From contig CAWJPY010000008.1 of the NCBI GenBank assembly GCA_963844865.1, forward strand, positions 48,959 to 112,958: 64,000 bases of DNA, read 5' to 3'. The stretch is from an uncultured Holophagae bacterium. GTDB lineage: Bacteria > Acidobacteriota > Thermoanaerobaculia > Thermoanaerobaculales > Sulfomarinibacteraceae. The notes beneath the pieces are model-generated. The model saw only the letters and a list, made by a program, of their open reading frames with translations, was not told the DNA's origin and searched no databases. The translations under genes were made by a program, and so were the position numbers. Shown in pieces: positions 14,016-34,226 of the stretch (position 1 is its first letter; every line of letters begins with the position of its first letter).

Positions 14016-14224
14016 GTACGCTCTCCTTCCAGCGACAGATCATACGCGATCCCCGTTCCCCCCACCGGTGTCCGCGTCCGCGGACGGCGGCAGCCACCCG
14101 ATCACGCGGGCCAGCGACTCACGGCAGAACGGCACGTCCATCGGGCGTGCCACTGGTGACCGGGCTTCGCTTGCAGCTTCGCCGTGGTCAGCGCTGGCAA
14201 CCACGGGGAACGCGTCGACAGAAT

Positions 14225-14365
14225 CGGCGCGTCGCGGCAGCTCTCGCTTGGGGTAGGCCAAAGCGGGAGCCAGGCACGCTTTCGAATGAAGCGATGCGCG
14301 TCCTATCGCCGCAAAACGGCGTGTCTGGCACCCTCTCTGGTGCTCCCGAAGCGAGACGCCCCGGA
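14225..14365. repeat. Dispersed hairpin element, copy 1
   Basis: Ungapped homology to 33865-34005; inner stem 14269-14279/14319-14329. Confidence 0.75.
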
Positions 14366-14560
14366 TCGCCGAGGCCCGCCGCTGTCCACCGTCCGCTGGC
14401 GCTGGTCACCGCTCCTGTCACCGATCACTGTCGCGGATCGCCGTCGCTGGTCGTTGAGCCCGACACTGTCCAGGCACCACTCGACCGATCGCTTCCCCGG
14501 GCACGCGGGCTGGAGGTTGCGTAGACTGGGCGGGCGCCGGCAGGCGCCGGAGGACAGACC

Positions 14561-16165
14561 ATGCGCCCCATCGAGTTCCGCATCACCCAGGACGGCACCG
14601 TGCTCAGCGACGACCCCGGCCTCCAGGAGGTCCTTCCCGAGGCCCTCGGCCAGGTCCTCAAGGTCGGGCGCCTCCCCGCCGACCTGCCCCTCGTGGGTCA
14701 CTGCCGGGTGGGCGACCGCTGGTGCGTCTTCACCCGGGACCCCGGGGAGCGCGTCATTCGCGGCGTCGCCCTGGAGGCCGCGGCCTACGCCGAGCTGGAC
14801 TACGACCCGTTCCGCACCGCCGCCGCGCATCTCGGCGGCCACGCCGTCACCGAGGCCGTCGCCGCGGGCCCGGTGGAGCCCCCCGCCTCGGGCCGCGCCA
14901 GCGACGCCGAGCAACCGCTGCGGGCCGCCTACGGGGGCTTCCTGGCGGGAGAGCCCCCGCTGCGCCGGGCGCCCTATCTCTCGGTCCTGCCCGCCGGGGT
15001 GGCGTCCGAGGTCTCCCCCCTCAGCCGCCTGACCGCCGAGCCGCCCGCCGCGCCCCAGCCGGGCCACGGGGCGGCGCGGTCGTGGGCCTCGCTACCCCTC
15101 GATCGGGGCGGAGACGTGACGGCCGCGATGCCCCCCACAGCCGCGATGCCCACCGGCGCGGACGACCGCCTCGAGGAGCGCGTGCTCGCCCTCGAGCAGC
15201 GTCTTGCCGGCACCCGCCGGACCCTCGCGATCGTCCTGCCCCTGGTGCTTCTCCTCGGTCTCGCGGGCGGCATCCTCCTCAATGAGAGGATCGACGGCGT
15301 GGCCGCGTCGTCGGCCAAGATCACCACTCTGGCCGAGGGCCTGGGCGTCGAGGCGCCACCGTCCGAGATGGAGCAGGCCATCGCGGCACACCTCCACGAC
15401 CTTTCCACGGCCGCCGTACAGAGCGGCGCGTGGCAGGCCGTCCTGGCGCGGCGCGGGGTCGAGCCGGGCCCCTTCCTGAACGACCTCATGGACCTCGGCG
15501 AGCGCAAGCAGCAGCTCCTCGCCCTGTCCTCCCAGGAGGGCGCCCTGAAGAGCCTGGCCGGCAAGGCCGCGACTCTCATCAGCCTCGCGCCGGCCGCCGA
15601 CGACCTCACGGCCCTTGCCGGTCAGCGCGAGCCCATCCTCCAGCTCGCGCAGCAAGAGCCTCCGCTGACCGCCCTGGCCGCGGCCGCGCCCCAGCTCGGC
15701 ACCCTCGCCAAGGACACGACCCAGCTCCACGGCCTCGCGGCGAGCGCCGGCGACCTCGAGCGCCTGGCCGGTGACCGCGCCGCCCTCACCGCACTCGCCG
15801 CCAGGAGATCCGCCCTCGAGGCCCTGGCCGGCCAGGCGACACCCATTCAGACGATGGTGGAGCACGGCGCCGATCTCATGATCTTCTGGGAGCGCTACGG
15901 GACCGCCATGGAGTCCCTGGCCAAGGAGCAGGTGAGCCTCGCCATGCTGGCCGAGCGCTACCGGACCATCGAGCGCTTGGTGCAGGACAGTCAGATACTC
16001 ACCACCATGGCGGAGAGCAAGCCCCTGCAGAGCCTCGTCAAACGGGACGACGACCTGCAGGCGCTGGACCGCAGCCTGGACAGCGTCCTGAGGCTCGCCG
16101 ACAACGCCGACGCCCTCCTGGGGAACCTGAGCATGCCGCGGCGCGCGGTCCCCAACGGAGGGTAG
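14561..16165 (+). CDS. Hypothetical single-pass membrane protein with 10-residue repeat stalk
   Basis: 534 aa; TM LAIVLPLVLLLGLAGGILL; L-x-x-L-A-x5 repeats. Confidence 0.8.
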   Translation: MRPIEFRITQDGTVLSDDPGLQEVLPEALGQVLKVGRLPADLPLVGHCRVGDRWCVFTRDPGERVIRGVALEAAAYAELDYDPFRTAAAHLGGHAVTEAVAAGPVEPPASGRASDAEQPLRAAYGGFLAGEPPLRRAPYLSVLPAGVASEVSPLSRLTAEPPAAPQPGHGAARSWASLPLDRGGDVTAAMPPTAAMPTGADDRLEERVLALEQRLAGTRRTLAIVLPLVLLLGLAGGILLNERIDGVAASSAKITTLAEGLGVEAPPSEMEQAIAAHLHDLSTAAVQSGAWQAVLARRGVEPGPFLNDLMDLGERKQQLLALSSQEGALKSLAGKAATLISLAPAADDLTALAGQREPILQLAQQEPPLTALAAAAPQLGTLAKDTTQLHGLAASAGDLERLAGDRAALTALAARRSALEALAGQATPIQTMVEHGADLMIFWERYGTAMESLAKEQVSLAMLAERYRTIERLVQDSQILTTMAESKPLQSLVKRDDDLQALDRSLDSVLRLADNADALLGNLSMPRRAVPNGG

Positions 16166-16204
16166 GGAGCCCTCTTTTCCCGCGCCTCCGTCCGTGTCCG
16201 AATC

Positions 16205-16276
16205 GGCGGCAGTGAGCGGCGGCAGTGAGCGGCGGCAGTGAGCGGCGGCAGTGAGCGGCGGCAGTGAGCGGCGGCA
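16205..16276 (+). repeat. Perfect tandem repeat, 13-mer GGCGGCAGTGAGC x5.5
   Basis: Units at 16205, 16218, 16231, 16244, 16257 and a partial unit at 16270. Confidence 0.95.
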
Positions 16277-16325
16277 TGGTCACTCCGGGTCGTTCGTCTG
16301 AGAACGTAGCCGGTGGCCGGCCCAT

Positions 16326-16371
16326 GTCAAGGGCAAGCCGGGCTCGGAGCCCGGTGCTTCGCACCCTTGAC
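16326..16371. repeat. Imperfect palindrome GTCAAGGG...CCCTTGAC
   Basis: Outer GTCAAGGG/CCCTTGAC and inner AAGC-CGGGCT/AGCCCG-GCTT arms. Confidence 0.75.
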
Positions 16372-16402
16372 CTGGGCCGCCCCCGGCTTGTGAACGGGGG
16401 GC

Positions 16403-16777
16403 ATGAACGACCCGGAGGTGACCATGCCCAACGCGATCCCCAGCACTGGTCTCACTGCTCATCACTTGGCGCTCGAAGCGGCCGGCGCTGCGATCAAGCT
16501 CGTCATGAGTTTGCCGGCTCCGTTGAAGCCGATCGGCGATCAGGTGATTCGTTCCGCGAGCTCGGTCCCGGCCAATCTCGCTGAAGGCCACGGACGGTCC
16601 GGCCGAGACCGGGTGCACCACTGGCGCATCGCCTATGCCTCGGCCAAAGAGGTGGACTCACACGTGCGGCTCCTCGCCGCGACCGGAGCCGTCCGTCGGT
16701 CAGCAGCGCAGCTCGTCATCGACGGCTTCGATAAGGTACGCGCCATGACGTGGCGGCTCCTCAACCCGAGGATCTGA
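16403..16777 (+). CDS. Four-helix-bundle protein (23S rRNA-IVP/bAvd-like family)
   Basis: DQVIRSASSVPANLAEGHGR and WRIAYASAKEV match the family core (DQ..RA..S...N.AEG); the start may be ATG 16424. Confidence 0.9.
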   Translation: MNDPEVTMPNAIPSTGLTAHHLALEAAGAAIKLVMSLPAPLKPIGDQVIRSASSVPANLAEGHGRSGRDRVHHWRIAYASAKEVDSHVRLLAATGAVRRSAAQLVIDGFDKVRAMTWRLLNPRI

Positions 16778-16805
16778 CCGTCGGGGCGCCATTCGCTCAA
16801 ACGGC

Positions 16806-18077
<1,272 letters not shown>

Positions 18078-18180
18078 CCTCCGGCCCGGTCCGGGAATCC
18101 TCCCGCGCTGCCGCCGGTTGTCACCACGACCGAGAACCAATCTCGGTCCTTCCGATGCGGAGGCCCTTCCGAGGCGGCGG

Positions 18181-18540
18181 ATGAAGAATGCTGACACGCC
18201 CGCGATCCTGCTCGACGACCTCGTACGTGCAGCGGATGACGTGCCCGGGGTGCGCCGGGACGACCTCTCTGTCGGCGACCGGCTGCTCGTGGCCACCAGG
18301 AACTCCATCTACTCCCTCACCCTCCGCGAGACCGGGTCGTTCCTCGTCACCGGCGGCGTCTTCGAGCGGACGGGCCGGGGAGCCGTCACCGTCGACGTCG
18401 TCGGCTGCTCCGTCGGCGGGCACGCCGTGCTCACCCGCTGCGTGGCGGCGCCGGGTCTATTCCTGGAGCTCGGGGACGGGACCCGGACCACGCGTATCCG
18501 GCAGGTGCGGGTGGTGAGCTCCGCCCACGGTGGGGTGTGA
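18181..18540 (+). CDS. Hypothetical beta-rich protein, 119 aa
   Basis: Open frame with typical GC3 codon usage; GDRLLVATRNSIY and GCSVGG...APGLFLELG. Confidence 0.7.
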   Translation: MKNADTPAILLDDLVRAADDVPGVRRDDLSVGDRLLVATRNSIYSLTLRETGSFLVTGGVFERTGRGAVTVDVVGCSVGGHAVLTRCVAAPGLFLELGDGTRTTRIRQVRVVSSAHGGV

Positions 18541-18739
18541 CGGGCGCCCGCTCCCTCACCTGGAGAGCCGGACCGACGACCCCACAACCACCATCACCAC
18601 GAACCGTCACGCCTCCCTGGAGGAGGGGTCTCTCGGTCACCTGGGGGACGACGGCTCCCGCCATCCACGAACCCCGCGGTGACAGCAGTCACCCCCGGCC
18701 CGCGCCGAGCGCGCTAGCGTGGGAGCGGAACGATCGAGA

Positions 18740-20215
18740 ATGGAACGGCGCGTGAGGTACTGCCTGCTGTCGGCAGCCGCGGCGATGGTCGCGGCAGCGC
18801 TTCCCGCGCACGCCGCCGACTACGAGGTGGGACCGCAACCGGGCATGCTGGGCGCCGTCGGCGACGTCCCGTGGGAGAGCCTGATGCCCGGCGACCGGGT
18901 GCTCATCCACTGGCGGGAGACCCCGTACCACGAGAAGTGGGTGCTGTGCCGGCGCGGCACCGCGGAGGCGCCGATCGTGGTCTCCGGAGTGCCGGGACCC
19001 GGTGGGGCGCTCCCCGTCATCGACGGGCGAGACGCGACGACACGCACCTCCCTCGACTACTGGAACGAGGTCCGAGGCGTGATCAAGATCGGCGGCGCCA
19101 GCATCCCCCCCGACACCCTCCCCGCCCACATCCTGGTCGAGAACCTGGACGTCCGTTCGGGGCGGCCTCCGTTCACCTTCACGACACACTCCGGCGGAGC
19201 GGCAACCTACGCGACGAACGCCGCCGCCATCTACGTGGAGAAGGCCGAGCACCTCACCATCCGCAACTGCATCCTCCGCGACTCCGGCAACGGCCTCTTC
19301 ATCGGCGCCGCAGACGGCGCCACCTCCGACATCCTCATCCACGGCAACTGGATCCACGACAACGGCATCGAGGGCAGCTACTACGAGCACAACAGCTACA
19401 CCGCCGCCATCCACATCACCTTCCAGTTCAACCGCTACGGACGTCTGCGGCCGGACTGCGGGGGGAACAACCTGAAGGACCGCTCGGCGGGGTTGGTGGT
19501 CCGCTACAACTGGATCGAAGGGGGCAACCGCCAGCTCGATCTCGTGGACGCCGAGGACAGCCAGGTGCTCGTGGACCACCCCGACTACCGGACGACGCTG
19601 GTCTACGGCAACGTGCTCATCGAGCCCGACGGCGAGGGCAACAGCCAGATCGTGCACTACGGCGGCGACAGCGGCGCCACCGCCGACTACCGCAAGGGCA
19701 CCCTGCACTTCTACCACAACACGGTGGTCTCGACCCGCACCGGCAACACGACCCTGCTGCGCCTCTCCACCAACGACGAGCACGCCGACGTCCGCGACAA
19801 CATCGTCTACCCCACTGCGGGCGGCTCCCGGCTCGCCATGCTGGACGGCGCCGGCATGCTGGACCTGCGCGACAACTGGCTGCCCCTGGGCTGGGTCGCG
19901 ACCCACGGCACGCTCACCGGAGTGCTCACCGGCTACGACGCCAACCTGGAGGGGATCGACCCCTCGTTCGCCGACCTCGCCCACCAGGACTTCACCCTGG
20001 CCCCCGGCGCCAGCGTGTGCGAGGACGCGGGCGGCCCCCTGGCGGACGCCGTCGTGCCGGAGCACGCCCCCGTCTGGCAGTACGTGCGCCACCGTGGCGC
20101 CGCCCCGCGCCCCGATGACGGCGCCCGTGATCTGGGGGCCTTCGAGTCCGGTCTCATCTTCGCCGACGCCTTCGAGAGCGGCGACGCCTCCCGGTGGTCG
20201 CGCGCAGCGCCGTGA
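18740..20215 (+). CDS. Secreted right-handed beta-helix (pectin lyase-like fold) protein
   Basis: Signal peptide; repeats such as LTIRNCILRDSGNG and ILIHGNWIHDNG; C-terminal LIFADAFESGD tail. Confidence 0.8.
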   Translation: MERRVRYCLLSAAAAMVAAALPAHAADYEVGPQPGMLGAVGDVPWESLMPGDRVLIHWRETPYHEKWVLCRRGTAEAPIVVSGVPGPGGALPVIDGRDATTRTSLDYWNEVRGVIKIGGASIPPDTLPAHILVENLDVRSGRPPFTFTTHSGGAATYATNAAAIYVEKAEHLTIRNCILRDSGNGLFIGAADGATSDILIHGNWIHDNGIEGSYYEHNSYTAAIHITFQFNRYGRLRPDCGGNNLKDRSAGLVVRYNWIEGGNRQLDLVDAEDSQVLVDHPDYRTTLVYGNVLIEPDGEGNSQIVHYGGDSGATADYRKGTLHFYHNTVVSTRTGNTTLLRLSTNDEHADVRDNIVYPTAGGSRLAMLDGAGMLDLRDNWLPLGWVATHGTLTGVLTGYDANLEGIDPSFADLAHQDFTLAPGASVCEDAGGPLADAVVPEHAPVWQYVRHRGAAPRPDDGARDLGAFESGLIFADAFESGDASRWSRAAP

Positions 20216-20474
20216 CAGGGTCCGGTCGCGCTGACGCGTTCAGCTCCCGTGCCCAGGATGTGGGCATCCCGTCGCCGCCCCTGTCCGCTGCCGCCGCCGC
20301 TGGCTGCTGCCCCTGATTCCCGCCGCTGATGGCTGGCGCGGTGCCTGTCGCCGACCTCTTCTCACGGCGTTCCCAACCCACCTTGAACCACGCCATACGA
20401 CCCGCTCAGATCCCCGCGAATGCAAAAGAACTGACAAAGCTCCGCGCCACGGCCGCCTCACGCTACGCCTGGGC

Positions 20475-20503
20475 TTGACCCCGCCGACGTGACTGTCTAG
20501 GTT
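20475..20503 (+). promoter_or_regulatory. Sigma70-type promoter for the FHA gene
   Basis: TTGACC-N17-TAGGTT about 20 nt before the ATG. Confidence 0.55.
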
Positions 20504-20522
20504 GAGAACAGAGGGACGAGCC

Positions 20523-20876
20523 ATGCCGAGACTTGACGTCTATGTAGACTACAAGCGCTTCCTGTCGTTCAAGCTCGGCCGTGAGTCGCTGCGGGTCGGC
20601 AGGTCCCCCGACTGCGACCTCCAGCTTCCCTCGGAGCAGGTCTCCAGGCACCACTCGACCATCGCCCCCACCAAGGACGGCGGCTTCGCCATCGAGGACG
20701 TGAGCACCAACGGGACCCGCGTCAACGCCACGATGATCCACGGCCGCAAGGCGCTCGTCCCGGGCGACCGCATCTACATCGCCACCTACGTGCTGGTCTA
20801 CCAGGAAGACGACACCCCGCCGGAGACCCTCGACAGCGAGCAGACCCTGGTCATGGACGACACACGGCTGATGTAG
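20523..20876 (+). CDS. Stand-alone FHA domain protein
   Basis: VGRSPDCDL, VSRHH, DVSTNGT: all conserved pThr-binding positions present. Confidence 0.9.
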   Translation: MPRLDVYVDYKRFLSFKLGRESLRVGRSPDCDLQLPSEQVSRHHSTIAPTKDGGFAIEDVSTNGTRVNATMIHGRKALVPGDRIYIATYVLVYQEDDTPPETLDSEQTLVMDDTRLM

Positions 20877-21176
20877 GCCGGAGCCACGCCCCGTCCGCAT
20901 CCGCGTCCGCGTCTGCTTCCGAGCTCCCGCTCACGTCCGCGCCCGACAAACGCGTCGCGAACCACAAACAGCGACTGCGATCGGCAGCAGCGTCCGGCGG
21001 CAGCGCGCAGCGTCCGTGACCGACGGCAGCGTCCGGCGGCACCCTTTCCCGCGCTCCCGAAGCCTTCTTCGACGACACACCCACCTTCTGTCGTGGTGAG
21101 CATCGCCAAGCCCTCGAGGCGGTGTTACGTGGAATGACACGGGGCCGCGCGGAGACGGTGGAACGTCCAAGTTGCC

Positions 21177-21228
21177 TGTCATTCTGAGCGAGGGTCGGTC
21201 CGCCGGAGCGAGGCGAAGGATTCCCCGA
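21177..21228 (+). repeat. Partial palindromic element beginning TGTCATTCTGAGCG
   Basis: Left end complements the GCTCGAGATGACA/GCTCGGGATGACA ends at 52838-52915. Confidence 0.5.
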
Positions 21229-21404
21229 GAGCTCCAGAGTCGTGACGGGGAGGCGTCTTATGGGACGCGGACGGGGGCGCGGACGCGGGTGGCGCCGCTG
21301 CGGGATACTGGCGCTGATCGCCGCCCCTGACAGCCGTTGCGGATGGCTGCACCTGACGCTGGTCGCCGGCCCGTCGATGATGGCGGCACCCGCGCGCGTC
21401 GCCG

Positions 21405-23574: not shown

Positions 23575-24054
23575 GACCGTCCCCCTTCGCGCATCTTGAG
23601 CGCTGCGCTCTCGATGGCGCGTGACGATCCTGGTGTGGGCCCCGCAGCGGCAGAGGTTGCCCTCCATGCCGTCCACGATCTCCTGCCGCGACGGCTGCGG
23701 ATTGGACCGCAGGAGGCTGTAGGCGTTGAGGATCATGCCGGGCGTACAGAAGCCGCACTGCAGGGCGTCGTGCTCGGCGAAGGCGGCCTGCAAGGGATGC
23801 AGCACCCCGTCGGTGGCCAGCCCTTCGATGGTCGTCACCTTCTTCCCCGCCACCTTGGCCACGGGAAGCTGGCACGAACGCACCGCCTCCCCGTCCACGA
23901 TGACGGTGCACGCTCCACACAGCCCTTCTCCGCAGCCGTACTTGGTGCCCGTGAGCCCGAGCTCGGTGCGCAGCACCCACAGCAACATCCGTTGGTCGTC
24001 CACCTCCACGTGGACTCCCTCGCCGTTCAGCGTGAATCCGATCCTTCGCTTCAT
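23571..24054 (-). CDS. 2[2Fe-2S] subunit (IorA/CoxS-like; frameshift near the 3' end)
   Basis: GTKYGCGEGLCGACTV and QCGFCTPG...NLCRCG; ATGA overlap with the large subunit. Confidence 0.95.
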
Positions 24055-24285
24055 CCCGCCTCCTCCCGCGTCCCCGGGGCCGCCTCGAAGACGTTCCACC
24101 CCGTTCCGACACGCCCCGGTGAGCGATCCTACCACCCACCATCCACCGGGTTGGACGGACGGCATGCGCACTGCGAGCGCCCACGGCACACCCCCCGAAA
24201 AGGCCTGGGACCCCAGGCCGCGGCGGCGAACGATGCCGCCGCGGACCCGGGGTCCCATGAGGTTGTCGATTGACTCGTCGAGAGG

Positions 24286-27072
24286 TCAGTACCGCCGGCG
24301 GCCGCCCGGTCGACGATAGCTGTGTCCCTCGTCTTCGCTTCCGATGCGGATGGCGCCCGAGCTCTCGCACTGGGCGCCGCCCGCGGTGGCGCTCATGGTC
24401 CAGTCGAAGATGCCACGGTCGGAGTAAGAGTGGCTCACCTCGTTCCCCTGGGCCGCGCTGCTGCCGTCACCGAAGTCCCAGGAGAGCACGGGGGTGGGGC
24501 ATCCCTCCCCCTGCGCCTCGCCGTGGAAGGTCACGGGTCGGCCCCGCCGGCCCCATCGCGGCACCTCTGCGGTGCAGGTCAGGGTGCAGGACGGCGCCGC
24601 CTGGATCTCGATGACGCCGGAGCGCGTGCAGGTGTCACCGTCCGCGGTCACCGTCAGGGTCCAGGTGTAGCTCCCGGCCGACGCATAGGTGTGCGTGGGG
24701 TTCTGCGAGCTCCCGTTCGGGCTGCCGTCGCCGAAGTCCCAGGTGTAGCTCACCTGGCCACCGCAGCTCGAGCTCCCCGTCGCCGAGAAGCTCACCGCCT
24801 CGCCGGCGGTCCCCGTCCCGGCACGGTCGCGCCGCACTCGACCGTGCAGGCGGGCGCCGCCTGGACCTCGATGACGCCGGAGCGCGTGCAGGTGCCGCCG
24901 TCCGCGGTTACCGTGAGGGTCCAGGTGTAGCTCCCGGCCGACGCGTAGGTGTGTGTGGGGTTCTGCGAGCTCCCGTTCGGGCTGCCGTCGCCGAAGTCCC
25001 AGGTGTAGCTCACCTGGCCGCCGCAGCTCGAGCTCCCCGTCGCCGAGAAGGTCACCGCCTCGCCGGCGGTCCCCGTCCCGGGCACGGTCGCGCCGCACTC
25101 AACCGTGCAGCCTGCGCCGCCTCCCACGTTCACGGTGACCGTCGCCAGGTTGGAGTCGGTGGAGCCGTCCCAGGCGGCGTAGGTGAAGGTCTCGGTGCCG
25201 GCTGAAGCCGGCCGGTGGGAAGTAGGTCGCCTGGCGTCCCATCAGGCCCACCGTGCCGTTGTGCGGGCTGGGAGACGATCCGGAGCTGGAGCGTGTCGCC
25301 GTCCGGATCCGACGCCTGGAGCGCGACGCCCACCGGCGTGACCCTGCGCGGTCGTCGCCGCGAGGTCGCTGACCACGGCCGGCTGGTTGCGGTTCCGGCT
25401 CTCCGAGCTCGGGCCGTTGTGGCAGGTGTAGCAGCCGATCTGGAAGCCGCGCCAGAAGGTCTTGTCGCCGAACTCGGTCCGCACTGCCCGATCGCCCTGG
25501 GCGCGCGAGAGCACGGTCCCGCGGTAGTCGGTGCCGTGGCACGCCTGGCACTGCTGCCGGTTGTGCTCGGCGGCCGACGTCGTGGCGGCTCACCCAGTCC
25601 TGCCCGACCGGGTGCATGCCGTGGGGACCGCCCGAGGTCGTCTGCGGCGTGGTCTGGTGGCAGGTGGTGCAGTCCACGAGGGTCCCCACGTGGCCCTGGA
25701 GCTGCAGGCTCTGCAGGTTGTCGTTGAGGTGGCTGGTGGGGAAGATCGCGTGGGTGGAGCCGTGGCAGGCCTCACACTGCAGCCCGCCGTGCCCCGTGGA
25801 GAAGCGGAACAGGGAGGTGCCGGCCATGGGCGTGTTGGGGTTGGTGGCGAAGGTTGAGTCCACCGCCTGCCGGTGCTGCCCGTTGCTGTCGAACGTGCTC
25901 GTGTACCGGATCTGCCCGTTGTTGTTGGTGGCGGTGCCGGTGTGGCACTGCTGGCAGGTGGGCTCGTCGAACCAGCCCGCCCTCCCGGTGGCGCCCACGT
26001 CGCTCATCACGCCGTGACAGCTCTGGCACTGCATGGCCAGGCTGCCGTCGCTGGCCACCGCGTTGCCCATGGCGCCCCGCAGGCAGCGGGTCTCCGAGCC
26101 CGGGTGGCAGGTGTAGCAGGCGGTGCGGTTGTCCGAGGCGTTCAGCACCATCCCGTTGGCGGGGTTCACCACCCCGGCGTGGGATGCGTGCAGGGCCTCG
26201 GTGAGGGGCTTCACGCCCGCCTGGCCCGTGCCCGGCAGCGCATTGGAGCCGTGGCAGGCGGCGCACAGCACGGCGGTGCCGTCGCCGGTGGCGGTGGCGT
26301 ACAGGCCCGACGAGTTGTACCCGGCACCGTTCAGCGCGGCCGCGAAGGCCGGGTTCCCGGCCTGCCTGTCATCGTGCAGGAGCAGGATGTTGAGCCGGAA
26401 GTCGCGCTCCGGATCCGGGTCGCTCACCCATCCCCCGTCGGGGCGGGCGGCACTTTCGGTTCCCGATCCGTGGCAGGCGATGCAGGTCATCTCGTCCGAC
26501 ACCGGCAACACGATGTCGGTCGTGGCCAGCACGTCGCCGCTGGCGTCGCGCGCCACCAGGTGCATGACCGGGTAGTAGTTCTTGTTGTGGCTGTCGTCAT
26601 AGGGCGTCAGCGGGATCCCCTCCGCAGTGAACCACGACAGCTCCGGCTCGAAGTGCATCTCCTGCGGCTGGTTCGTCGCTCCCGGCATATTGAAGCCGGC
26701 CAGGCCCTCGTTGGTCGCCAGGTCGACGCCGAACAGGGCCAGCACATGGTCCCAGAAGTTGGTCTTTCCGGCGGAGGTGGTGTTGATCGACCCGTCCGGG
26801 TCCGCGATCCCCTCATACGTCACCGTGATGCCGGCGGCGGCCGTCACCAGCTCACCGTCCGGTCCCACGAGCTGGGCGTGGATCGTGTTGTAGGGAGGAA
26901 GGATGCTGAACACGCCGAAGTCCGCATCCATGCAGTGCATGCCCAGGTCGTTCCAGCCGATCAAGGTCCACCCGCTCTGGGCGGCCGCCGGCGTCGCGAC
27001 CACCAACAGACCCAACAGGATCACCACACCGGTCGTGAGTCCTGTCCACGTTCGCCTTCGGTCCGTCTTCAT
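24286..27072 (-). CDS. Secreted nine-heme c-type cytochrome with Ig-like and three PKD domains (several frameshifts)
   Basis: Signal peptide; GWNDLGMHC; CIACH, CAACH, CYTCH, CQSCH, CQQCH, CEACH, CTTCH, CQACH, CYTCH; ASDPDGD Ig-like domain; YTWDFGDG x2 and SWDFGDG. Confidence 0.88.
24584..25104 (-). repeat. Near-identical intragenic tandem duplication (two PKD units, 261-nt period)
   Basis: Units start at 24584, 24844 and 25105; the 260-nt unit lacks one base, which explains the frameshift. Confidence 0.9.
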
Positions 27073-27097
27073 GAAACCCTCCTTTCGCTATATGCGA

Positions 27098-27127
27098 AAT
27101 TGGTGATACCACCATCACGTAATTGGT
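27098..27127. promoter_or_regulatory. AT-rich putative operator upstream of the multiheme gene
   Basis: AATTGGT direct repeat 23 nt apart enclosing the palindrome GTGAT-N6-ATCAC. Confidence 0.35.
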
Positions 27128-27376
27128 AATGGTTAGCAATAGCCGTCCGTGACCACGGTCACCAGCGACGCATGTGCGCCCCTGACCACGTTTCCGTACT
27201 GTGACCCCGGTCCCCATTTCGGGCCGCGACACCCCCGGCCGAGACCGTGAGACCACCGAGAGCCGGCACCGATCCCTGGCCCGGGGAGCAGCCTGGTCAC
27301 GGGGCGGCGGGATCTGTCACACTTCCGCCTACAGAGCGGCAGCCTGGTCCAGAGGACGGACGGCGAGGAGCTCAAC

Positions 27377-28979
27377 ATGGACAGACGACGGGCGCTCGAG
27401 GTGCTCGACGCCTTTCACGATCACTGGGACGTGCTCGTCATCGGCGGCGGGGCCACCGGCCTCGGCACGGCGGTGGACGCCGCCGCCCGTGGGTACCGCA
27501 CCCTGCTCCTGGAGCAGAGCGACTTCGCGAAGGGCACCTCCAGCCGCAGCACGAAGCTGGTCCACGGGGGGGTGCGCTACCTCCGCCAGGGCAACGTGTC
27601 CCTGGTGCTGGAGGCGCTGCACGAGCGCGGGATCATGGCGCGCAACGCCCCCCACCTGGTCCGCAACCAGGCCTTCATCGTCCCCGTGTACGACTGGTGG
27701 GAGGGCCCCTTCTACGGCATCGGCCTGCAGGGTGTACGACATGCTCGCCGGCGATCTCGGCATCGCGCCGTCCAGGAACCTGTCCCGCGACGAGACCCTG
27801 GACCGCATCCCGAACCTGGAGGCCGAGGGCCTGCGGGGAGGCGTCATCTACTACGACGGCCAGTTCGACGATGCGCGCCTCGCCGTCAATCTCGCCCAGA
27901 CCGCCACCGAGCGCGGGGCGACCGTCCTCAACTACATGCCGGTCATCGGCCTGCTGAAGGCGGGCGGCATGGTGGCCGGCGTGCGGGCGCGAGACGCCGA
28001 GTCCGACGCCACCTACGCGATCCACGCCCGGGTCGTGGTGAACGCCACCGGCGTGTTCACCGACCAGGTGCTGCGCATGGACGACGCCGACGCCCGATCC
28101 ATCGTGTCACCGAGCCAGGGCACGCACCTCGTGCTGGGCAGGGAGTTTTTGCCCGGAGACACCGCGATCATGGTGCCCCACACCACGGACGGCCGCGTCC
28201 TGTTCGCCGTGCCCTGGCACGACCGCGTCGTGCTCGGCACCACCGACGTGCCCATGACGGAGACGACCCTGGAGCCTCGCCCACTCCCCGAGGAGGTCGC
28301 CTTCATCCTCGACAACGCCGCCCGGTACATGACCAAGGACCCGACCCCGGGCGACGTCCTGAGCGCCTTCGCCGGCCTCCGGCCCCTCATCTCGTTGGGC
28401 GACGACGAGGATACCGCCAAGCTCTCCCGCGACCACTCGGTGCTGGTCTCTGCCTCCGGCCTGGTCACCATCACCGGCGGCAAGTGGACCACCTACCGCA
28501 GGATGGCCCAGGACGCCGTGGACCGCGCCGCCATGGTTGGAGGGCTCCTCCCCCATCCCTGCACCACCGAGACCCTCAGGATCCACGGCTGGCTGGAGGA
28601 TCCGGTCCCGGAGGACCCGCTGCGCCTCTACGGGGCCGACTCGCCGCAGCTGCGGGACCTCATGGACCGGGACTCCAGCCTCCGCAAGCGGGTCCACGAC
28701 CGCCTGCCGCTCACCGGCGCCCAGGTGGTGTGGGCCGTGCGGCAGGAGATGGCCCGGACGGTGGAGGACGTGCTCGCCCGTCGGTGCCGGGCCTTACTGC
28801 TGGACGCCGCGGCGGCCGTCGAGGCCGCGCCGGCGGTGGCCGCCCTCATGGCGCGCGAGCTGCGGCACGGTCGGCGCTGGCAGCGCGACCAGGTCGCGGC
28901 GTTCGCCGCCCTCGCGCAGGGCTACCGCGTCGAGCCTCCTGCGGTCGGATCTCCAGCTTCTTCCGAAGTGCCTGCCTGA
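27377..28979 (+). CDS. glpD: FAD-dependent glycerol-3-phosphate dehydrogenase (frameshift near 27730)
   Basis: IGGGATG, GTSSRSTKLVHGGVRYL, YYDGQFDDARL, AGLRPL, GGKWTTYR. Confidence 0.93.
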
Positions 28980-29081
28980 TCTCCGTCCCTGCCGCCGGCG
29001 GCACGCCACACCGCAGGGAATATCGCGGACGCGGTCCAGTTCTCTGGTAATGAGAGCCATTCTCTAGAATGGAGGTTGGGT

Positions 29082-29348
29082 ATGCAGTTCATGGTTCAGT
29101 TCACTCTGAGGCCCGCCAGCCGCTCCACGGCGACCCCGCGCCTCACCACGGCCGGGGGGCCGCCCCCCGATGGGATCACCATGATCGGTGGATGGCACAG
29201 CGCGATCATGGGCGAGGGCTTCAACCTGGTGGAGACCGACGACATCGAGGCACTGGCCGGCTGGTGCGCCCAACGGGCGGACCGCAGCTCGTTCAAGATC
29301 GTGCCCGTCCTCAGCGACCGGGAGGCACGGGAGGCGGCGTCCCGCTGA
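29082..29348 (+). CDS. Small ferredoxin-like-fold protein (DUF3303-like)
   Basis: PPDGITMIGGWH...GFNLVETDD...W...FKIVPVL pattern; RBS GGAGG. Confidence 0.65.
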   Translation: MQFMVQFTLRPASRSTATPRLTTAGGPPPDGITMIGGWHSAIMGEGFNLVETDDIEALAGWCAQRADRSSFKIVPVLSDREAREAASR

Positions 29349-29548
29349 GGATGCGGCGCCCACACACAGCACGGACGGTGCGCTGACGCCGGAGCTGAGA
29401 AGGGGAAATTCTTGTAGCCCCTGGCGCGACCGGACCTCACGGCACACGGTCAGCCGCGGCCGCGGTTGATCGCTCGCGCTGGCTGCCGTCGCTGACTGGC
29501 GACGCCGTCGCGGCTCCTGACCGCGGTCCCGGGGCGTTCCCCGTCCGC

Positions 29549-31735
29549 TCAGGCCCCGCAGTGGTCGGGGCACGCCGGCTGCACCCCCATCTCCCGGAGC
29601 AGCCCGTCGGCGTGCTCCAGACGATCCAGCGTCCACAGCAGGTAGCGCACGTCGACGTGGATGGAGCGCGTCACCGCCGGCAGGAAGTCCCAGTCGGAGA
29701 TCATGCTCTCCCAGTTGCCGTCGAAGAGCAGCCCCACCAGCCGTCCCCTGGCATCCAGGGTGGCCGACCCGGAGTTGCCGCCCGTGGTATCCACGTCGGA
29801 CAGGAAGTCCACCGGCAGCGAGCCGACCTCCTTGGACTCGTAGAGGCCGTAGTCGCGGGAGGCGATGGCCGCGAGCAGCGGCGCCGGAGCGTCGAACGGC
29901 GGCGTCCCCGTGGCCTTCTCCGCCACGCCCTCGGCCGTCGTGAAGGGGAGGTAGGCGACGGCGTCCGCGGGGTGATACCCCTGCACGGTGCCGAAGGTCA
30001 CGCGCAGCGTCCCGTTGGCGTCGGGGTACACCTCCGTGCCCTGCGCCTGCTCGTACGCCAGCAACGCCTCCTCGAAGCGGGGCCGCGCCTCCAGCAGCCG
30101 ACCCTCGACCGCGTCGTCCTCGTCCTCGAGACGCAGGTTGGTGTCGTACATGGCGACCGCGAGCTGAACGAAGGGATCCTCGCTGGCCTCCAGGGTCGCC
30201 CGATCGGCGTCGAGGAGGGCCAGCCGGTGGGCCTTGTTCCCCAGGGCGGTGCCGGCGTACGCCGCGTCGAGGCGGGCTTTGATGACCGCCGTCGGGTCGC
30301 TCCCCTGCGCCAGGCCGAGCCAGCGGTCCAGCACCTGCAAATGCTCCCCCGCCGGAAGGGCCGCGTAGTGCTCCAGGGAGCGAGCCAGCAGGGCCTCGTC
30401 GACCCGGGCATCGTGGCTGCGCGCGGCCCGCGCCACCCGTGCCCGGATGCGGGCCATGTCGCGCTCCTGGTACCCGAGCTTGCGCTGGCCGTCCGGCTTC
30501 TCGCGCTCCCGGGCGAGGCGGTGGGCGGTGGTGGCCGCCGACACGAGCTGGTTGTAGCGCAGGGAGCCGAGCGCCAGGTCGCGCTCGCGGTGGGCCCGCC
30601 CCTCCTGGAGGACCCCCTCCAGGTCCTGGACTGCGTCGCCCCACCGGGCGGTGCGCTGCGGATCGGCGGCGATCCACTTCTGGAGGTCGGCCTCCAGGGC
30701 CCGCTTGCGCGCCACAGAGGTGGAGCGTGCGAAGCCGGCGACCATCCCCTGGGCGTTCTTCATGCGGTTGTTGATGCCGGCCACCGTGGCGGCGTACGCG
30801 AGCGCCGCCTGGGGCCGTCCGGCGGTCTCCCGGTCGATGACCTGGAGCTGCTCCTCCGACCGCGCCACCCGCTGGGGGTAGGTCCACTGGATGGCCTCCT
30901 CGACCTCCGACGCGAGCCGATAGCGGTTGGTCCGCCCCGGGAAGCCCGCCACCATCACGAAGTCGCCGCTGCTCACTCCCTCGGTACCGATCCGCAGCCA
31001 GTGCGCGGGGCGGTAGGGCACGTTTCCAGGCGACGGATCGGCGGGCAGGCCGTCGGGCCCGACGTAGGCGCGGTACATGGAGAAGTCGCCGGTGTGGCGG
31101 GGCCACATCCAGTTGTCGACGTCACCCCCGTACTTGCCGATGGAGGACGGCGGCGCGTACACCAGGCGCACGTCCCGGATCGCGAGCTGGTCATAGAGGC
31201 GATACTGCAGGCCGCCGTAGAAGGAGGCCACCTTGCAGCGGTGACCGGGCGCGGCCTCGCACTCCGCGATGAGGTTCTTCTCGGCGTCCTCGAGGGCGGT
31301 GACACGGGCCTTCCCGTGGACGTCGGCCGACGCGGCCTGCATCCGTCCGGTGACATCGGAGACCGCGAGGGTCACGTACACCCGGGAGCCGGGCGCCGCC
31401 GGCAGCTCCTCCCCCCGCTCCCGCGCCAAGAACCCTTCCTGGAGGAGGTTGCGCTCGGGCGTGGAGTTGTACTGGATGGTGCCGTAGGCACAGTGGTGAT
31501 TGGTCACCACCAACCCCTCCGGCGAGATGAACGACGCCGAGCACCCACCCAGGGACACGATGGCGCCCATGGGATCTCCGGTGACGTCGGCAAGCGTCTC
31601 GGGCGCGACCTCGAGTCCCGCCGCCCTCAGACGAGCGCCAATCTTCGGAAGCTGCTCGGGAAGCCACATGCCCTCCACGGCCCAGCCGAGCGGGGCCGCA
31701 GTGACCGCCAGAAGGAAGAGTATCGTTGCCCGCAT
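29549..31735 (-). CDS. S46 family dipeptidyl peptidase (DPP7/DPP11-like)
   Basis: EGMWLP, GGCSASFIS, TNHHC, NWMWPRHTGDF, TTGGNSGS. Confidence 0.95.
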   Translation of the reverse strand: MRATILFLLAVTAAPLGWAVEGMWLPEQLPKIGARLRAAGLEVAPETLADVTGDPMGAIVSLGGCSASFISPEGLVVTNHHCAYGTIQYNSTPERNLLQEGFLARERGEELPAAPGSRVYVTLAVSDVTGRMQAASADVHGKARVTALEDAEKNLIAECEAAPGHRCKVASFYGGLQYRLYDQLAIRDVRLVYAPPSSIGKYGGDVDNWMWPRHTGDFSMYRAYVGPDGLPADPSPGNVPYRPAHWLRIGTEGVSSGDFVMVAGFPGRTNRYRLASEVEEAIQWTYPQRVARSEEQLQVIDRETAGRPQAALAYAATVAGINNRMKNAQGMVAGFARSTSVARKRALEADLQKWIAADPQRTARWGDAVQDLEGVLQEGRAHRERDLALGSLRYNQLVSAATTAHRLAREREKPDGQRKLGYQERDMARIRARVARAARSHDARVDEALLARSLEHYAALPAGEHLQVLDRWLGLAQGSDPTAVIKARLDAAYAGTALGNKAHRLALLDADRATLEASEDPFVQLAVAMYDTNLRLEDEDDAVEGRLLEARPRFEEALLAYEQAQGTEVYPDANGTLRVTFGTVQGYHPADAVAYLPFTTAEGVAEKATGTPPFDAPAPLLAAIASRDYGLYESKEVGSLPVDFLSDVDTTGGNSGSATLDARGRLVGLLFDGNWESMISDWDFLPAVTRSIHVDVRYLLWTLDRLEHADGLLREMGVQPACPDHCGA

Positions 31736-32130
31736 TGAGACGCCCTCCACGATCTCGATATGGCGCCGTTGTCGACACCGCCCGCCACTCTAGCAGAGCG
31801 GTGGAGGGCGAGGCCGGCTCCTACGCTCGACCCTGTGACGGAGGCCACCGTGCGGGACGGCGCCGCGCCTGCTCCCCTGAGGAGCCTCGCGCTCGATCCG
31901 GGTGATGTCTCATGCGCTGCCAGGGAGTCACTCGGAGACGGTGGGCCGATTCGGCCCAGGCGACATGCTGAGCACGGCGCGCGGCAGGCGATGGATCTGT
32001 GCCGCCGTCACACGGCCTCAGCCTCCACGGCACCGAGACGCTCGGTGACGAGGAGCGGTCCGTCCTCGGAACCCCGCGCTGCCCTGCTATGATCCGGGGG
32101 CATGACGCCTGAGCGCGAGGAAGTGAGGCG

Positions 32131-33825
32131 GTGATGAGAAAACTGATCGTGGCCGGCTGTGCCGTCCTGGTTGCTGCGAGCTGCGGAGCCCCGTCCCCTA
32201 CTCCGAGCGGCACCTCTGCCGCGCTGGATCTGCCAGCCGGTTGGAAGACCGCCGCCCAGTCCATCGCTGCCGAGCAGATGCTCCTCGATGTCACCCGGCT
32301 CGCCAGCGACGACTTCGAAGGGCGGCTGCCGGGCACCGAGGGTGATCGCCGCGCCCGCGCCTACCTCACCGACCGCCTGCGGGGGATGGGCTACGGGCCC
32401 GCCTTCGCCGACGGCAGCTACGAGCAGCCGGTCCCCATCGTGGGCCTCACCTCGAAGATGCCGGATGAGTGGACCTTCCACGGCCCCGACGGCGCCGGGG
32501 TGAGCTTCCCCTTCGGGGACTCCTACATGGGCGCGTCCGGCGTGCAGCAGGACCAGGTCGCCATCGACGACGCCCAGGTGGTCTTCGTGGGCTACGGCAT
32601 CCAGGCGCCCGAGGAGGGCTGGGACGACTACAAGGGGGCTGACCTGAAGGGCAAGGTCCTCCTCATGCTCAACGACGACCCGGACTGGGACCCCGACCTC
32701 TTCGCCGGCGAGCGCAAGCTCTACTACGGCCGCTGGGACTACAAGTACGAAAGCGCCGCCCGCCAGGGCGCCGCGGCCGCCGTCATCATCCACACCACGC
32801 CGTCCGCGGGGTACCCCTGGGAGGTCGTCCGCACCGGCTGGAGCGGTGAACAGTTCGAGCTCGCCGCCGGGGACGAGCCGCGTCTCCAGCTCAAGGCGTG
32901 GCTGACCGAGGACGCCGCTCGCCGACTGGTCGCGCTGACCGGCCACGACCTCGATGCCCTCATCGAGGCGGCCCACACCCGTGGCTTCGAGCCCGTCGCG
33001 CTCGGCGCCACCACCTCCATCCACTTCCCCGTGCAGGTGAAGCAGACCGCGAGCGCCAACGTCGGCGGCCTCCTGCGCGGATCAGATCCCGAGGTGGCCG
33101 ACCAGGTGGTGGTCTTCTCGGCCCACCACGACCACTTCGGCATCGGCCGTCCCGATGACACCGGCGACGCGATCTACAACGGGGCCCTGGACAACGGGGT
33201 CGCCATGGCCGAGGGGCTGGCCGTGGCCAACGCCTTCACCAAGCTCCCCGAGCCGCCCCGGCGGAGCATCCTGGTGCTCTTCGTGGCCGCGGAGGAGCAG
33301 GGGCTCCTGGGCTCGAGCTACTTCGTACACAGCGGCGCCTACGAGCCCGCGAAGATGGTCGCGGACGTCAACTTCGAGCTCGGCAACGTGTGGGGCAAGA
33401 CCAAGGACGTCATGGTCTACGGTCTCGGCAAGTCCTCCCTGGACGACCTGGTGACGGCGGCCGCTCGGCGCCAGGACAGGGTGGTCACGGCCGAGCAGGA
33501 CGTCCACGCCGGCTGGTTCTACCGCTCCGACCAGCTCAGCTTCGCCCAGGTCGGCGTGCCCGCCATCTGGTTCAAGTCGGGCGTCGACTTCGTCGGCCGG
33601 CCGGCAGGCTGGGGCGAGGCCCGCTACGCGGAGTGGATCGACAAGCACTACCACCGGCCCAGCGACGAAGTCCGCCCCGACTGGGTTCTGGACGGCCTCG
33701 TGGAGGACGCCCGCCTGGCCTTCGCCGTCGGGGCCTCGGTGGCCACCAGCGACCAGACTCCCACCTGGAACCGGGGGGACGAGTTCGAGGCCGAGCGTCT
33801 GCAGTCTCTAGGAGCGGCAGAGTAG
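32131..33825 (+). CDS. M28 family metallopeptidase with PA domain, probable lipoprotein
   Basis: Lipobox-like VAASC; SAHHDH, GALDNG, AEEQGLLGS, RSDQ, YHRPSD. Confidence 0.92.
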   Translation: MMRKLIVAGCAVLVAASCGAPSPTPSGTSAALDLPAGWKTAAQSIAAEQMLLDVTRLASDDFEGRLPGTEGDRRARAYLTDRLRGMGYGPAFADGSYEQPVPIVGLTSKMPDEWTFHGPDGAGVSFPFGDSYMGASGVQQDQVAIDDAQVVFVGYGIQAPEEGWDDYKGADLKGKVLLMLNDDPDWDPDLFAGERKLYYGRWDYKYESAARQGAAAAVIIHTTPSAGYPWEVVRTGWSGEQFELAAGDEPRLQLKAWLTEDAARRLVALTGHDLDALIEAAHTRGFEPVALGATTSIHFPVQVKQTASANVGGLLRGSDPEVADQVVVFSAHHDHFGIGRPDDTGDAIYNGALDNGVAMAEGLAVANAFTKLPEPPRRSILVLFVAAEEQGLLGSSYFVHSGAYEPAKMVADVNFELGNVWGKTKDVMVYGLGKSSLDDLVTAAARRQDRVVTAEQDVHAGWFYRSDQLSFAQVGVPAIWFKSGVDFVGRPAGWGEARYAEWIDKHYHRPSDEVRPDWVLDGLVEDARLAFAVGASVATSDQTPTWNRGDEFEAERLQSLGAAE

Positions 33826-33864
33826 CTCCCATCCGCGCCCGCAGTCGGAGGCGGTGACGGCGCC

Positions 33865-34005
33865 CGACGCGCCGCGGTATCTCACGCTTCGGGCACGGGA
33901 GAGGGCGAGCCAGGCACCGTGGAAGATGCAGCGCACGGGCTTCTCGGAGCAGTCGCGACGGTGCCTGGCACGCTCTCTGGTGCTCCCGAGTCCTCACGCC
34001 CCTGA
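33865..34005. repeat. Dispersed hairpin element, copy 2
   Basis: Perfect 12-bp stem GCCAGGCACCGT/ACGGTGCCTGGC (33909-33969); homologous to 14225-14365. Confidence 0.75.
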
Positions 34006-34216: not shown

Positions 34217-34226
34217 CGGCAGTCCG

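Follow-up and report, generated by a model that had tools for sequence, protein, structure and literature searches.

The two long hairpins lying between predicted genes in the window, i.e., the whole 64,000-nt stretch of DNA analysed here, can be considered to belong to a lineage-specific family of non-autonomous DNA elements of the REP-doublet (REPIN-like) type, referred to below as H, and we put the probability of this reading at about 0.7. The family was most likely spread by a single-strand-DNA transposase, and its mobilisation would have occurred in trans. The initial annotation described two copies of a hairpin and proposed either that a REPIN/MITE-like element had been mobilised in trans or that the hairpin was a structured non-coding RNA. 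Iterated nhmmer searches of the whole host genome, a 4.74-Mb Thermoanaerobaculia/Sulfomarinibacteraceae-like metagenome-assembled genome (assembly 93% complete), gave 541 matches in 286 loci, of which the two hairpins, copies A and B, represent only two. The former proposal is favoured by the mostly intergenic position of these loci, by inverted 13-mer doublets of fixed spacing, by the lack of target-site duplications, and by the presence of the same 13-mer on both sides of Y1 transposase genes in other genomes and metagenome contigs; no support was found for the latter. Some covariation was present in the stems, and no coding remnant was recognised in the elements.

The two hairpins and their neighbourhood

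Copies A and B (Table 1) lie exactly 19640 nt apart, as first described, and their similarity is beyond chance (blastn, E = 5e-7). Pairwise alignment reproduced the reported match of the right arm, GTG(T/C)CTGGCAC(C/G)CTCTCTGGTGCTCCCGA, at 27 of 29 positions, as well as the lower conservation of the left arm and the poor conservation of the central loop. Copy A is the top match of the family profile (149 bits, E = 2e-43; nhmmer), and copy B scores 78 bits (E = 1e-21). Start-to-start spacing of the 13-mer cores in copy A is 54 nt, the same as in the family; its outer stem is CTCGCTTGGGG/CCCGAAGCGAG and its apex is of the alpha type, the commonest sub-family, the apex of copy B being gamma-like. 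Copy B is flanked by a convergent M28 peptidase gene (stop at 33825) and an HTH_26 ORF (end at 34046), and an identical copy B is present in an independent Logan contig, which breaks inside the right arm.

Table 1. Features in the window and Y1 transposase loci of the host genome
Feature	Position	Strand	Sequence	Basis or remark
X hairpin, companion module directly upstream of copy A	14147..14199	+	stem GCCACTGGTGAC/GTCAGCGCTGGC	alignment of H copies; 26-nt loop
Small linker hairpin	14211..14231	+	CGCGTCGA-CAGAA-TCGGCGCG	between X and H
Copy A of H, core	14243..14355	+		113 nt; sequence, fold, nhmmer
Left 13-mer of copy A	14266-14278		GGAGCCAGGCACG	degenerate
Right 13-mer of copy A	14320-14332		CGTGTCTGGCACC	
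CGCTG-rich tail	14356..14470	+		degenerate ~13-nt repeats; downstream of copy A
Copy B of H, core	33881..33993	+		~113 nt; alignment, fold, nhmmer
Left 13-mer of copy B	33906-33918		CGAGCCAGGCACC	
Right 13-mer of copy B	33960-33972		GGTGCCTGGCACG	
Y1 locus	C1:86783-87216			checked for flanking motif
Y1 locus	C28:18383-19354			checked for flanking motif
Y1 fragments	C13, C5, C12			checked for flanking motif

Each copy forms a long hairpin whose 12-bp inner stem is perfect, and the exchange of CACGC/GCGTG in one copy for CACCG/CGGTG in the other was found again. Only copy A folds better than its shuffled sequences (z = -3.5, against -1.1 for copy B), and the opposite strands of both copies fold almost as well; the hairpin is thus a DNA palindrome and not a strand-specific fold. 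This bears on the proposal that the elements are structured RNA genes or cis-acting RNAs, e.g., 3'-UTR stabilisers, which would work in one orientation. The stability of the long hairpin of copy A and the position of the elements behind gene ends agree with such a role, but a scan of copy A revealed no promoter-like or terminator-like sites. No Rfam match at the gathering score was obtained in the whole window. Permissive searches gave only noise at E < 1; the best sub-threshold scores were 16-20 bits, where the cut-offs are 62-168.

Upstream of many H copies, as of copy A, the X hairpin is conserved. Genome-wide, its half-sites number about 105-135; the loops measure 27 or 53-55 nt, and an H arm lies 50-60 nt downstream of 45% of the half-sites. 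The 3' half of the linker hairpin occurs in about 105 genome copies. The imperfect outer stem of the initial annotation is a weak pairing of this linker 3' half with the sequence just 3' of H. In its type of sequence the CGCTG-rich tail corresponds, in inverted orientation, to the perfect 13-mer arrays found upstream of four-helix-bundle genes.

Anatomy of the H family

The H element is a palindrome of ~110 nt composed of two inverted 20-33-nt arms around an apex, and 253 of the 286 loci were matched on both strands. Each arm carries the 13-mer palindrome GGTGCCWGGCACC, which is present in the genome at 208 exact sites (control, 1). Left and right arms form 132 doublets with a spacer of 40-50 nt in 119 and of exactly 43 nt in 104 of them; pairing and conservation end ~13 nt beyond the 20-nt arms. 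Identity to the consensus amounts to 94% in the 13-mer cores, 71% in other stem columns and 61% in the apex, which falls into sub-families of 53, 22, 17, and 6 members, every one 43 nt long. In 70 of 103 elements the left unit has A, and the right unit T, at the centre of the 13-mer. The unpaired GT[AG]G guide tetranucleotide of canonical REPs is absent from the hairpin foot (consensus arm, CCAGAGAGGGTGCCAGGCACC). Median nearest-neighbour identity of the copies is 84%; the family is therefore fairly diverged and its current activity may be low.

The stem is largely maintained by paired changes. At the top two stem pairs the combinations CG..CG, GC..GC, and CC..GG were found in 54, 29, and 15 elements, respectively, with only 5 of 103 unpaired, and pair 24-92 is GC in 85 elements and CG in 13. 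Altogether 76% of the stem cells are paired, versus 38-43% when the partner column is slid. The global excess of covariation is modest (176 double-change cells versus 147 +/- 12 in column shuffles), and the two flipped pairs coincide with sub-families and may therefore reflect a small number of events. Such compensatory pairs, together with G.T oppositions outnumbering A.C oppositions (320 to 249, in the apex-defined orientation), would fit an RNA; the G.T asymmetry is, however, small and stems from a few columns inherited within sub-families, and the best-conserved part of the element is a perfect duplex-type palindrome, the apex being hypervariable.

Genomic context and dispersal

As many as 89% of the H loci are intergenic, compared with 25% of random sites, and the density of H per kb is about three times higher in gaps between convergent genes. 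With respect to the flanking genes the orientation of H shows no bias (16 versus 24 in tandem gaps, 19 versus 19 in convergent gaps), which also argues against an RNA function; the RNA proposal is considered very improbable.

Copies of H that are 96-97% identical occur at loci with unrelated flanks. A blastn search with the whole element in 40 relatives from the same family and order gave no matches; the element as such is thus lineage-specific. In two relatives, L047 and L048, in which the Nramp/M28 synteny is kept, the gaps syntenic to that of copy B are of similar length and unalignable. Exact-protein look-ups made for strain comparison returned the same strain only, or no match.

The arms resemble terminal inverted repeats, and the small size, abundance and mostly intergenic location of H recall classical MITEs, internally deleted derivatives of DDE-transposase insertion sequences moved by cut-and-paste at such repeats. 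Correia elements of Neisseria are likewise small, abundant, intergenic, hairpin-forming and MITE-like, are bounded by terminal inverted repeats, and possess target-site duplications, as DDE-type MITEs do. At H, in contrast, no 2-8-nt k-mer was repeated at the two ends beyond the level of the shuffles at any of 576 offset pairs of the boundaries. Neither was an IS-sized parent found, as no arm pairs 0.5-3 kb apart enclose a gene; only two of the 132 left-right arm pairs are more than 2 kb apart, and these look like neighbouring elements. Moreover, the spacer is fixed at 43 nt rather than covering a range of deletion products. An origin as a DDE-type MITE is accordingly very unlikely.

Another explanation regards H as a functional site kept by the host, either a pair of 13-mers binding a dimeric protein or a hairpin that ends or stabilises transcripts, its mobility being secondary. 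REP/BIME sequences are bound in their hosts by gyrase and IHF. The far stronger conservation of the 13-mer than of the rest of the element, the fixed 54-nt distance between the two sites and the enrichment between convergent genes are in line with such a function. The same bias of position is nevertheless predicted by selection against insertions into promoters, and no T-run follows the hairpin. The family is absent from the 40 relatives, and of 401 genomes from the phylum only 4 have the motif amplified; both observations speak against a general function in the host, and this explanation is considered improbable.

Relation to Y1 transposases

The exact 13-mer was counted in 400 other Acidobacteriota genomes. 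Counts of 34, 80, and 51 were obtained in three of them, the other 397 contain at most 7 copies, and the reversed-pattern control gave 0-4. In G003, G138, and G174, the three genomes with amplification, the 13-mer stands on both sides of a PF01797 gene, and the bracketed Y1 genes are of two lengths, ~190 aa and ~323 aa. The repeat flanking the gene on contig C4 of G003, GGTGCCAGGCACCGAACTCCG, contains the 13-mer. Among 80 metagenome loci picked solely for a 13-mer doublet, a Y1 ORF abuts the motif in five and is bracketed on both sides in four. A literature search for the 13-mer returned only unrelated eukaryotic matches.

A transposase gene flanked by the same motif, which the initial annotation suggested looking for, is absent from this assembly. 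The Y1 set of the host comprises two PF01797 genes, one intact and TIRYT-like, the other IS200-like, and four decayed copies (Table 1). Allowing up to two mismatches, no core was found within 2.5 kb of any of these genes or fragments in a meaningful position. An inverted repeat of its own, GGTGCCACGTTCACATTTGTTGA, flanks the intact TIRYT-like gene on contig C28; this repeat is different from the H arm, occurs in six genome copies and shares only GGTGCCA with the 13-mer core. Hence, the enzyme may be encoded in the unassembled ~7% of the genome, H may be served by the TIRYT-like gene on C28, or H may be an orphan population in slow decay.

According to the proposed mechanism, the arms of H would fold on single-stranded DNA, and the 13-mer hairpin would be recognised by a RAYT/TIRYT-type Y1 HUH transposase, which would cut the strand and rejoin it, so that the element would move in trans without target-site duplication. 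Copies would then persist mainly behind the 3' ends of genes, where they do the least harm. A broader and more speculative proposal, which we regard as possible though doubtful, is that GGTGCCWGGCACC is a recognition palindrome shared widely, by more than one Y1 (RAYT/TIRYT) branch, including the long, C-terminally extended one, which surveys call not REP-associated, and that the 286-locus population of this genome persists without a bracketed gene, being either served in trans by a TIRYT that shares only the GGTGCCA half-site or decaying after the loss of its enzyme.

Association with four-helix-bundle gene cassettes

Of ~50 four-helix-bundle genes or gene fragments, about 20 overlap H or are followed by it, in the same orientation, within 250 nt. 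In five such cassettes, at five unrelated loci, an identical 205-nt deletion is joined to H, which indicates that the gene-H composite was copied as a unit. Part of the spread of H is by the copying of larger mosaics, and copying of such cassettes by the same Y1 machinery is a further, speculative possibility. These data could also mean that H belongs to the multi-copy four-helix-bundle (23S-rRNA-IVS-protein/Avd-like) cassette as its 3' end module, most copies being remnants left after loss of the gene, as would agree with homology upstream of H that fades gradually, like in truncated copies. However, more than 90% of the H loci bear no trace of the gene, H is missing within 1 kb of at least 13 of the 27 full-length genes, and the gene-H junction exists in at least three forms. 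The 13-mer core is, in addition, amplified and brackets Y1 genes in genomes where no link to the cassette is needed. An origin of H as a cassette module is therefore held to be unlikely. Retrons, DGRs, CRISPR arrays and coding remnants were also considered and dropped, as a reverse transcriptase and spacer logic are both missing and H lies outside ORFs.

Comparison with known systems

REPINs and their RAYTs have been described in Pseudomonas fluorescens SBW25, and REP/BIME with TnpA-REP in E. coli (Bertels and Rainey 2011, PMC3116915, PMC3337134; Quentin et al. 2018, PMC6006769). Like REPINs, H consists of short palindromic units in hundreds of extragenic copies, arranged as inverted doublets of fixed spacing that form one long hairpin, with a stem maintained by paired changes, no target-site duplication, and a unit that brackets a Y1 HUH gene, here in three other genomes and in metagenome contigs. 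Several features set H apart from REPINs: its unit, a perfect 13-mer palindrome, lacks the GT[AG]G guide at the foot, it resides in an acidobacterium, and a motif-bracketed transposase gene is missing from the assembly. As in E. coli BIMEs, H frequently joins other small repeat modules in a constant order, i.e., the X hairpin, the linker hairpin, and short tandem arrays, which fill intergenic gaps; these modules are unrelated in sequence to those of BIMEs, and the link to the four-helix-bundle cassette has no counterpart there. With Correia elements H shares small size, abundance, intergenic location and hairpin formation, and differs from them in lacking target-site duplications.

The layout of the G003:C4 gene and of the C28 gene of this genome is that of TIRtrons, whose TIRYT genes have been reported from Koribacter versatilis (ORF1552) and Stenotrophomonas maltophilia (Di Nocera et al. 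2013, PMC3733652) and probably correspond to subclass 2.1 of Quentin et al. 2018. TIRYTs are Y1 genes of 320-340 aa flanked by inverted repeats, with an acidobacterial group among them, and some of their repeats are self-complementary, moderately amplified and present in dimers (PMC3733652). In contrast to TIRtrons, which share the published terminal motif GGGGWSAS (PMC3733652), H carries GGTGCCWGGCACC; its 286 loci exceed the moderate abundance of the TIR families described there (PMC3733652), and its arm differs from the repeat of the TIRtron in its own genome.

Implications

For annotation of this genome, the ~290 intergenic hairpins are to be treated as repeats and not as RNA genes, terminators, or regulatory sites, and the breaks of contigs can be attributed to them. 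With H, the REPIN-like families gain an acidobacterial member whose 13-mer palindromic core is clean. Judged from the sequences, H and the bracketed Y1 genes found elsewhere would constitute a concrete pair of substrate and enzyme in a branch of the HUH transposases that has been little studied. As no bracketed gene is present here, this genome may represent a natural case of a REPIN population without its RAYT. Such a population would bear on the idea, put forward in a preprint, that REPIN populations need their RAYT for long-term persistence (bioRxiv 10.1101/2021.07.10.451892).

Anatomy of the Hairpin Family

The hairpin occurring twice in the window, designated H, belongs to the REP/REPIN-TIR kind of repeats as a new member specific to this lineage, and GGTGCCWGGCACC, the palindromic 13-mer at the core of its arms, was not found in searchable papers. 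The initial annotation had located two copies, A and B, separated by 19640 nt, and both were confirmed by reading the sequence. Pairwise alignment reproduced the match of the right arms at 27 of 29 positions, the looser left arms, and the poorly conserved apex, i.e., the segment between the inverted arms; the two stem-top pairs differing on both sides between the copies were seen in the folds of both. The inner stem of the long hairpin is a perfect 12 bp in A and B, and their similarity is beyond chance (blastn, E = 5e-7). The family profile scores 149 bits for copy A and 78 bits for copy B (nhmmer), and with shuffle z-scores of -3.5 and -1.1, respectively, copy A alone folds better than its own shuffles.

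Contig C8, which carries the window, is part of an assembly of 4.74 Mb (32 contigs, 69% G+C) that, judged by the relatives of Nramp (top identity 80%), comes from an uncultured member of Thermoanaerobaculia/Sulfomarinibacteraceae, Acidobacteriota. Iterated nhmmer searches of the whole genome gave 541 matches at 286 loci, copies A and B being the only ones in the window, and 253 loci were matched on both strands, as expected of a palindrome. The consensus reads CTCGCTTCGGG-nnnn-CCAGAGAGGGTGCCAGGCACC, 43 nt, GGTGCCTGGCACCCTCTCTGG-nnnn-CCCGAAGCGAG, with the 13-mer, present at 208 exact sites in the genome, inside each arm. A genome-wide search with 20-nt arms and at most 4 mismatches yielded 441 arms and 132 left-right doublets, the spacer being 40-50 nt long in 119 of the latter and exactly 43 nt in 104. 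Outside the arms, pairing and conservation extend for about 13 nt further, bridging an internal loop of 4 nt, beyond which both are at background level, so the element proper is about 110 nt long. Identity to the consensus is 94% in the 13-mers, a figure partly inflated by the arm selection, 71% in the remaining stem, and 61% in the apex. Apex sequences group into sub-families (53, 22, 17, and 6 members, plus singletons), all of them 43 nt long and sharing only a ATGAAGCG-like word.

Features of the window, of the host genome and of related genomes
Feature	Position	Description
Copy A	14225-14365 (core 14243-14355)	divergent gap; C1-like peptidase gene (minus strand) on one side, plus-strand ORF on the other
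Copy B	33865-34005 (core 33881-33993)	convergent gap; M28 peptidase gene on one side, HTH_26 ORF adjoining Nramp on the other
HTH_26 ORF	34046-34309	minus strand
Window cassette	16205-16777	complete four-helix-bundle copy, without H directly behind
Cassette array	16205-16277	5.5 perfect units of GGCGGCAGTGAGC
Cassette leader palindrome	about 16275-16426	start codon inside
Cassette gene	ATG 16403 to TGA 16775-16777	124 aa, PF05635/TIGR02436 family
Deletion cassettes	C12:123869, C12:189513, C19:77580, C13:130841, C5:296449	unrelated loci
IS200-like gene	C1:86783-87216	short Y1_Tnp gene; comM-like gene on one side, nuoA on the other
TIRYT-like gene	C28:18383-19354	intact, 324-aa Y1 protein; HYH and YIHLNP motifs
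Flanks of TIRYT-like gene	C28:18272-19384 (L112:1357-2469)	inverted repeats GGTGCCACGTTCACATTTGTTGA(TTTG)
Distant inverted pair of GGTGCCACGTTCACATTTGTTGA	C6:208690-208826	about 100 nt apart
Decayed Y1 fragments	C13:196290, C5:583605, C12:305164, C12:302114	four
Y1 gene of a same-family genome	G003:C4	323 aa, PF01797; between direct pairs of GGTGCCAGGCACCGAACTCCG in inverted orientation
Y1 genes of two other genomes	G138:C111, G174:C11	about 190 aa, PF01797; between AAAGGTGCCWGGCACCTTT doublets

The palindrome of H is clearly maintained. Across all 37 stem pairs 76% of the cells are paired, a share that drops to 38-43% once the partner column is shifted by 1-3 positions. The stem-top pairs of 103 elements are CG..CG in 54, GC..GC in 29, and CC..GG in 15, with 5 unpaired, and pair 24-92 is GC in 85 elements and CG in 13. 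The stem-top flip, the same as that between A and B, largely tracks the apex sub-family, and the independent compensatory events may be few in number. The excess of covariation over column shuffles is modest: 176 double-change cells versus 147 +/- 12, with 4 of 300 shuffles reaching 176. Oppositions of G.T slightly exceed those of A.C (320 versus 249), mostly in four columns.

Genomic Context and Dispersal

Genes were called crudely from GC3 (2937 genes covering 74% of the genome); on this basis, 89% of the H loci are intergenic, compared with 25% of random sites. Convergent gaps (468) harbour 107 of them, tandem gaps (1510) 115, and divergent gaps (422) 30, the density being about three times higher in the convergent ones. 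The orientation defined by the apex bears no relation to gene direction (tandem 16 versus 24, convergent 19 versus 19, divergent 7 versus 6). This lack of orientation bias argues against an RNA gene, as do the hypervariable apex, the symmetry of the fold between strands (the reverse strands of A and B fold nearly as well as the forward ones), the absence of promoter and terminator signals at copy A, and the lack of any Rfam match in the window. Such a gene is unlikely, and of the two options initially proposed, the structured noncoding RNA found no support; the REPIN/MITE-like element held in its REPIN-like form, with 286 loci and Y1 transposase brackets in other genomes.

A MITE of the DDE type is likewise improbable, since both the flanking duplication and the parent element are missing: no direct duplication of 2-8 nt was found at the 576 boundary offsets examined around H, and the genome-wide arm search revealed no IS-sized segment enclosed by an arm pair. 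Copies of H that are 96-97% identical stand at loci with unrelated flanks. The median nearest-neighbour identity is 84%, hence the family is not the product of a fresh burst.

In the HTH_26 ORF beside copy B, the match to the Pfam domain begins only at residue 33, and the 30 N-terminal residues are Trp/Arg/Cys-rich and non-coding in appearance; this gene may be damaged, or translation may in fact start further inside. At the position of copy B in the Nramp-M28 peptidase gap of a Thermoanaerobaculales MAG (L047:4192-4577) a CGCCAAG-like unit forms short tandem repeats, so other kinds of repeats fill the same convergent gap in relatives.

Mosaics with Four-Helix-Bundle Cassettes

Upstream of about 100 H copies, including copy A, stand a second hairpin, GCCACTGGTGAC ... 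GTCAGCGGTGGC, whose loop measures 27 or 53-55 nt, and a small linker hairpin; downstream of these H copies come CGCTG-rich degenerate repeats of about 13 nt. Another frequent companion is a gene for a four-helix-bundle protein (124 aa; PF05635, TIGR02436), of which the genome contains about 50 copies and fragments, 27 being full length. Ahead of each gene come a perfect tandem array of 13-nt units and then a leader palindrome, about 150 nt long, with the start codon inside it. H is located just downstream of, or overlaps, about 20 of these genes. In five cassettes an identical internal deletion of 205 nt joins the codons for ANLAEG to H, the 3' half of the gene being gone; as these cassettes lie at unrelated loci, the composite of about 790 nt (array, leader palindrome, truncated gene, and H) was copied whole. 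Most H loci bear no trace of the gene, and we read the cassette as a frequent neighbourhood of H rather than as the family's origin.

The cassette arrays are uniform within a locus and differ at 3-4 positions between loci (variants GTGAGC, GCGATC, GCGCTC, GTGGAC, GTGATC, and TGCGATC), a pattern suggestive of local expansion or homogenisation. Behind many of the four-helix-bundle genes and many H copies there are degenerate arrays in complementary orientation. It can also be mentioned that (CCG)n words of 13-24 nt occur about 1800-2000 times in a genome-wide k-mer count, so the assembly must contain at least one very long CCG/GGC microsatellite.

Y1 Transposases and the 13-mer

No copy of the whole H element was found by blastn in 40 relatives belonging to the same family and order. 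A search of 401 Acidobacteriota genomes for the bare 13-mer had the reversed pattern as its control (0-4 occurrences). Against the 208 sites of the host genome there are 34 in G003, of the same family, and 80 and 51 in G138 and G174 (another family); the remaining genomes contain it at most 7 times. A site kept by the host for protein binding or transcript ends may be a secondary role of H, this patchy distribution speaking against it as the reason for the family.

G003, G138, and G174 each have a PF01797 (Y1_Tnp) gene with the 13-mer on either side, a bracket that Y1 genes lack in three genomes where cores are few. An unbiased check used 80 metagenome loci (418 kb) chosen solely for a 13-mer doublet; a Y1-like ORF abuts the motif in five and is bracketed on both sides in four, the chance expectation, roughly estimated from typical gene frequencies and not computed, being well under one. 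The arrangement is that of the REPtrons and TIRtrons of RAYT and TIRYT genes (PMC3116915, PMC3733652, PMC6006769).

In the host genome itself, no RAYT/Y1 gene flanked by the same motif was found among two PF01797 genes and four decayed fragments. The IS200-like protein seems to lack the catalytic tyrosine: by eye, it has AIHGLRGQ where IS200 has Y-I-x-N-Q, with Ala at the usual place of the tyrosine motif. The 13-mer core nearest to its gene is 1.7 kb away, past another gene. The TIRYT-like protein encoded on contig C28 is 34% identical to the bracketed protein of G003, and its gene lies between perfect inverted repeats (two copies upstream, one downstream) that have only GGTGCCA in common with the 13-mer core. 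Of just six GGTGCCACGTTCACATTTGTTGA copies in the genome, three lie away from this gene. C28 probably belongs to the same organism, because it also carries a four-helix-bundle gene of this genome's family. No 13-mer cores lie near the four decayed fragments, of which the one on C5 is about 50% identical to the G003 protein.

The assembly is 93% complete and its contigs break at repeats. Given that no bracketed Y1 gene is present in it, the cognate enzyme may be unassembled or lost, or the C28 protein may act on a related site. On the evidence of the gene-repeat brackets in other genomes, H would be mobilised by a Y1 enzyme.
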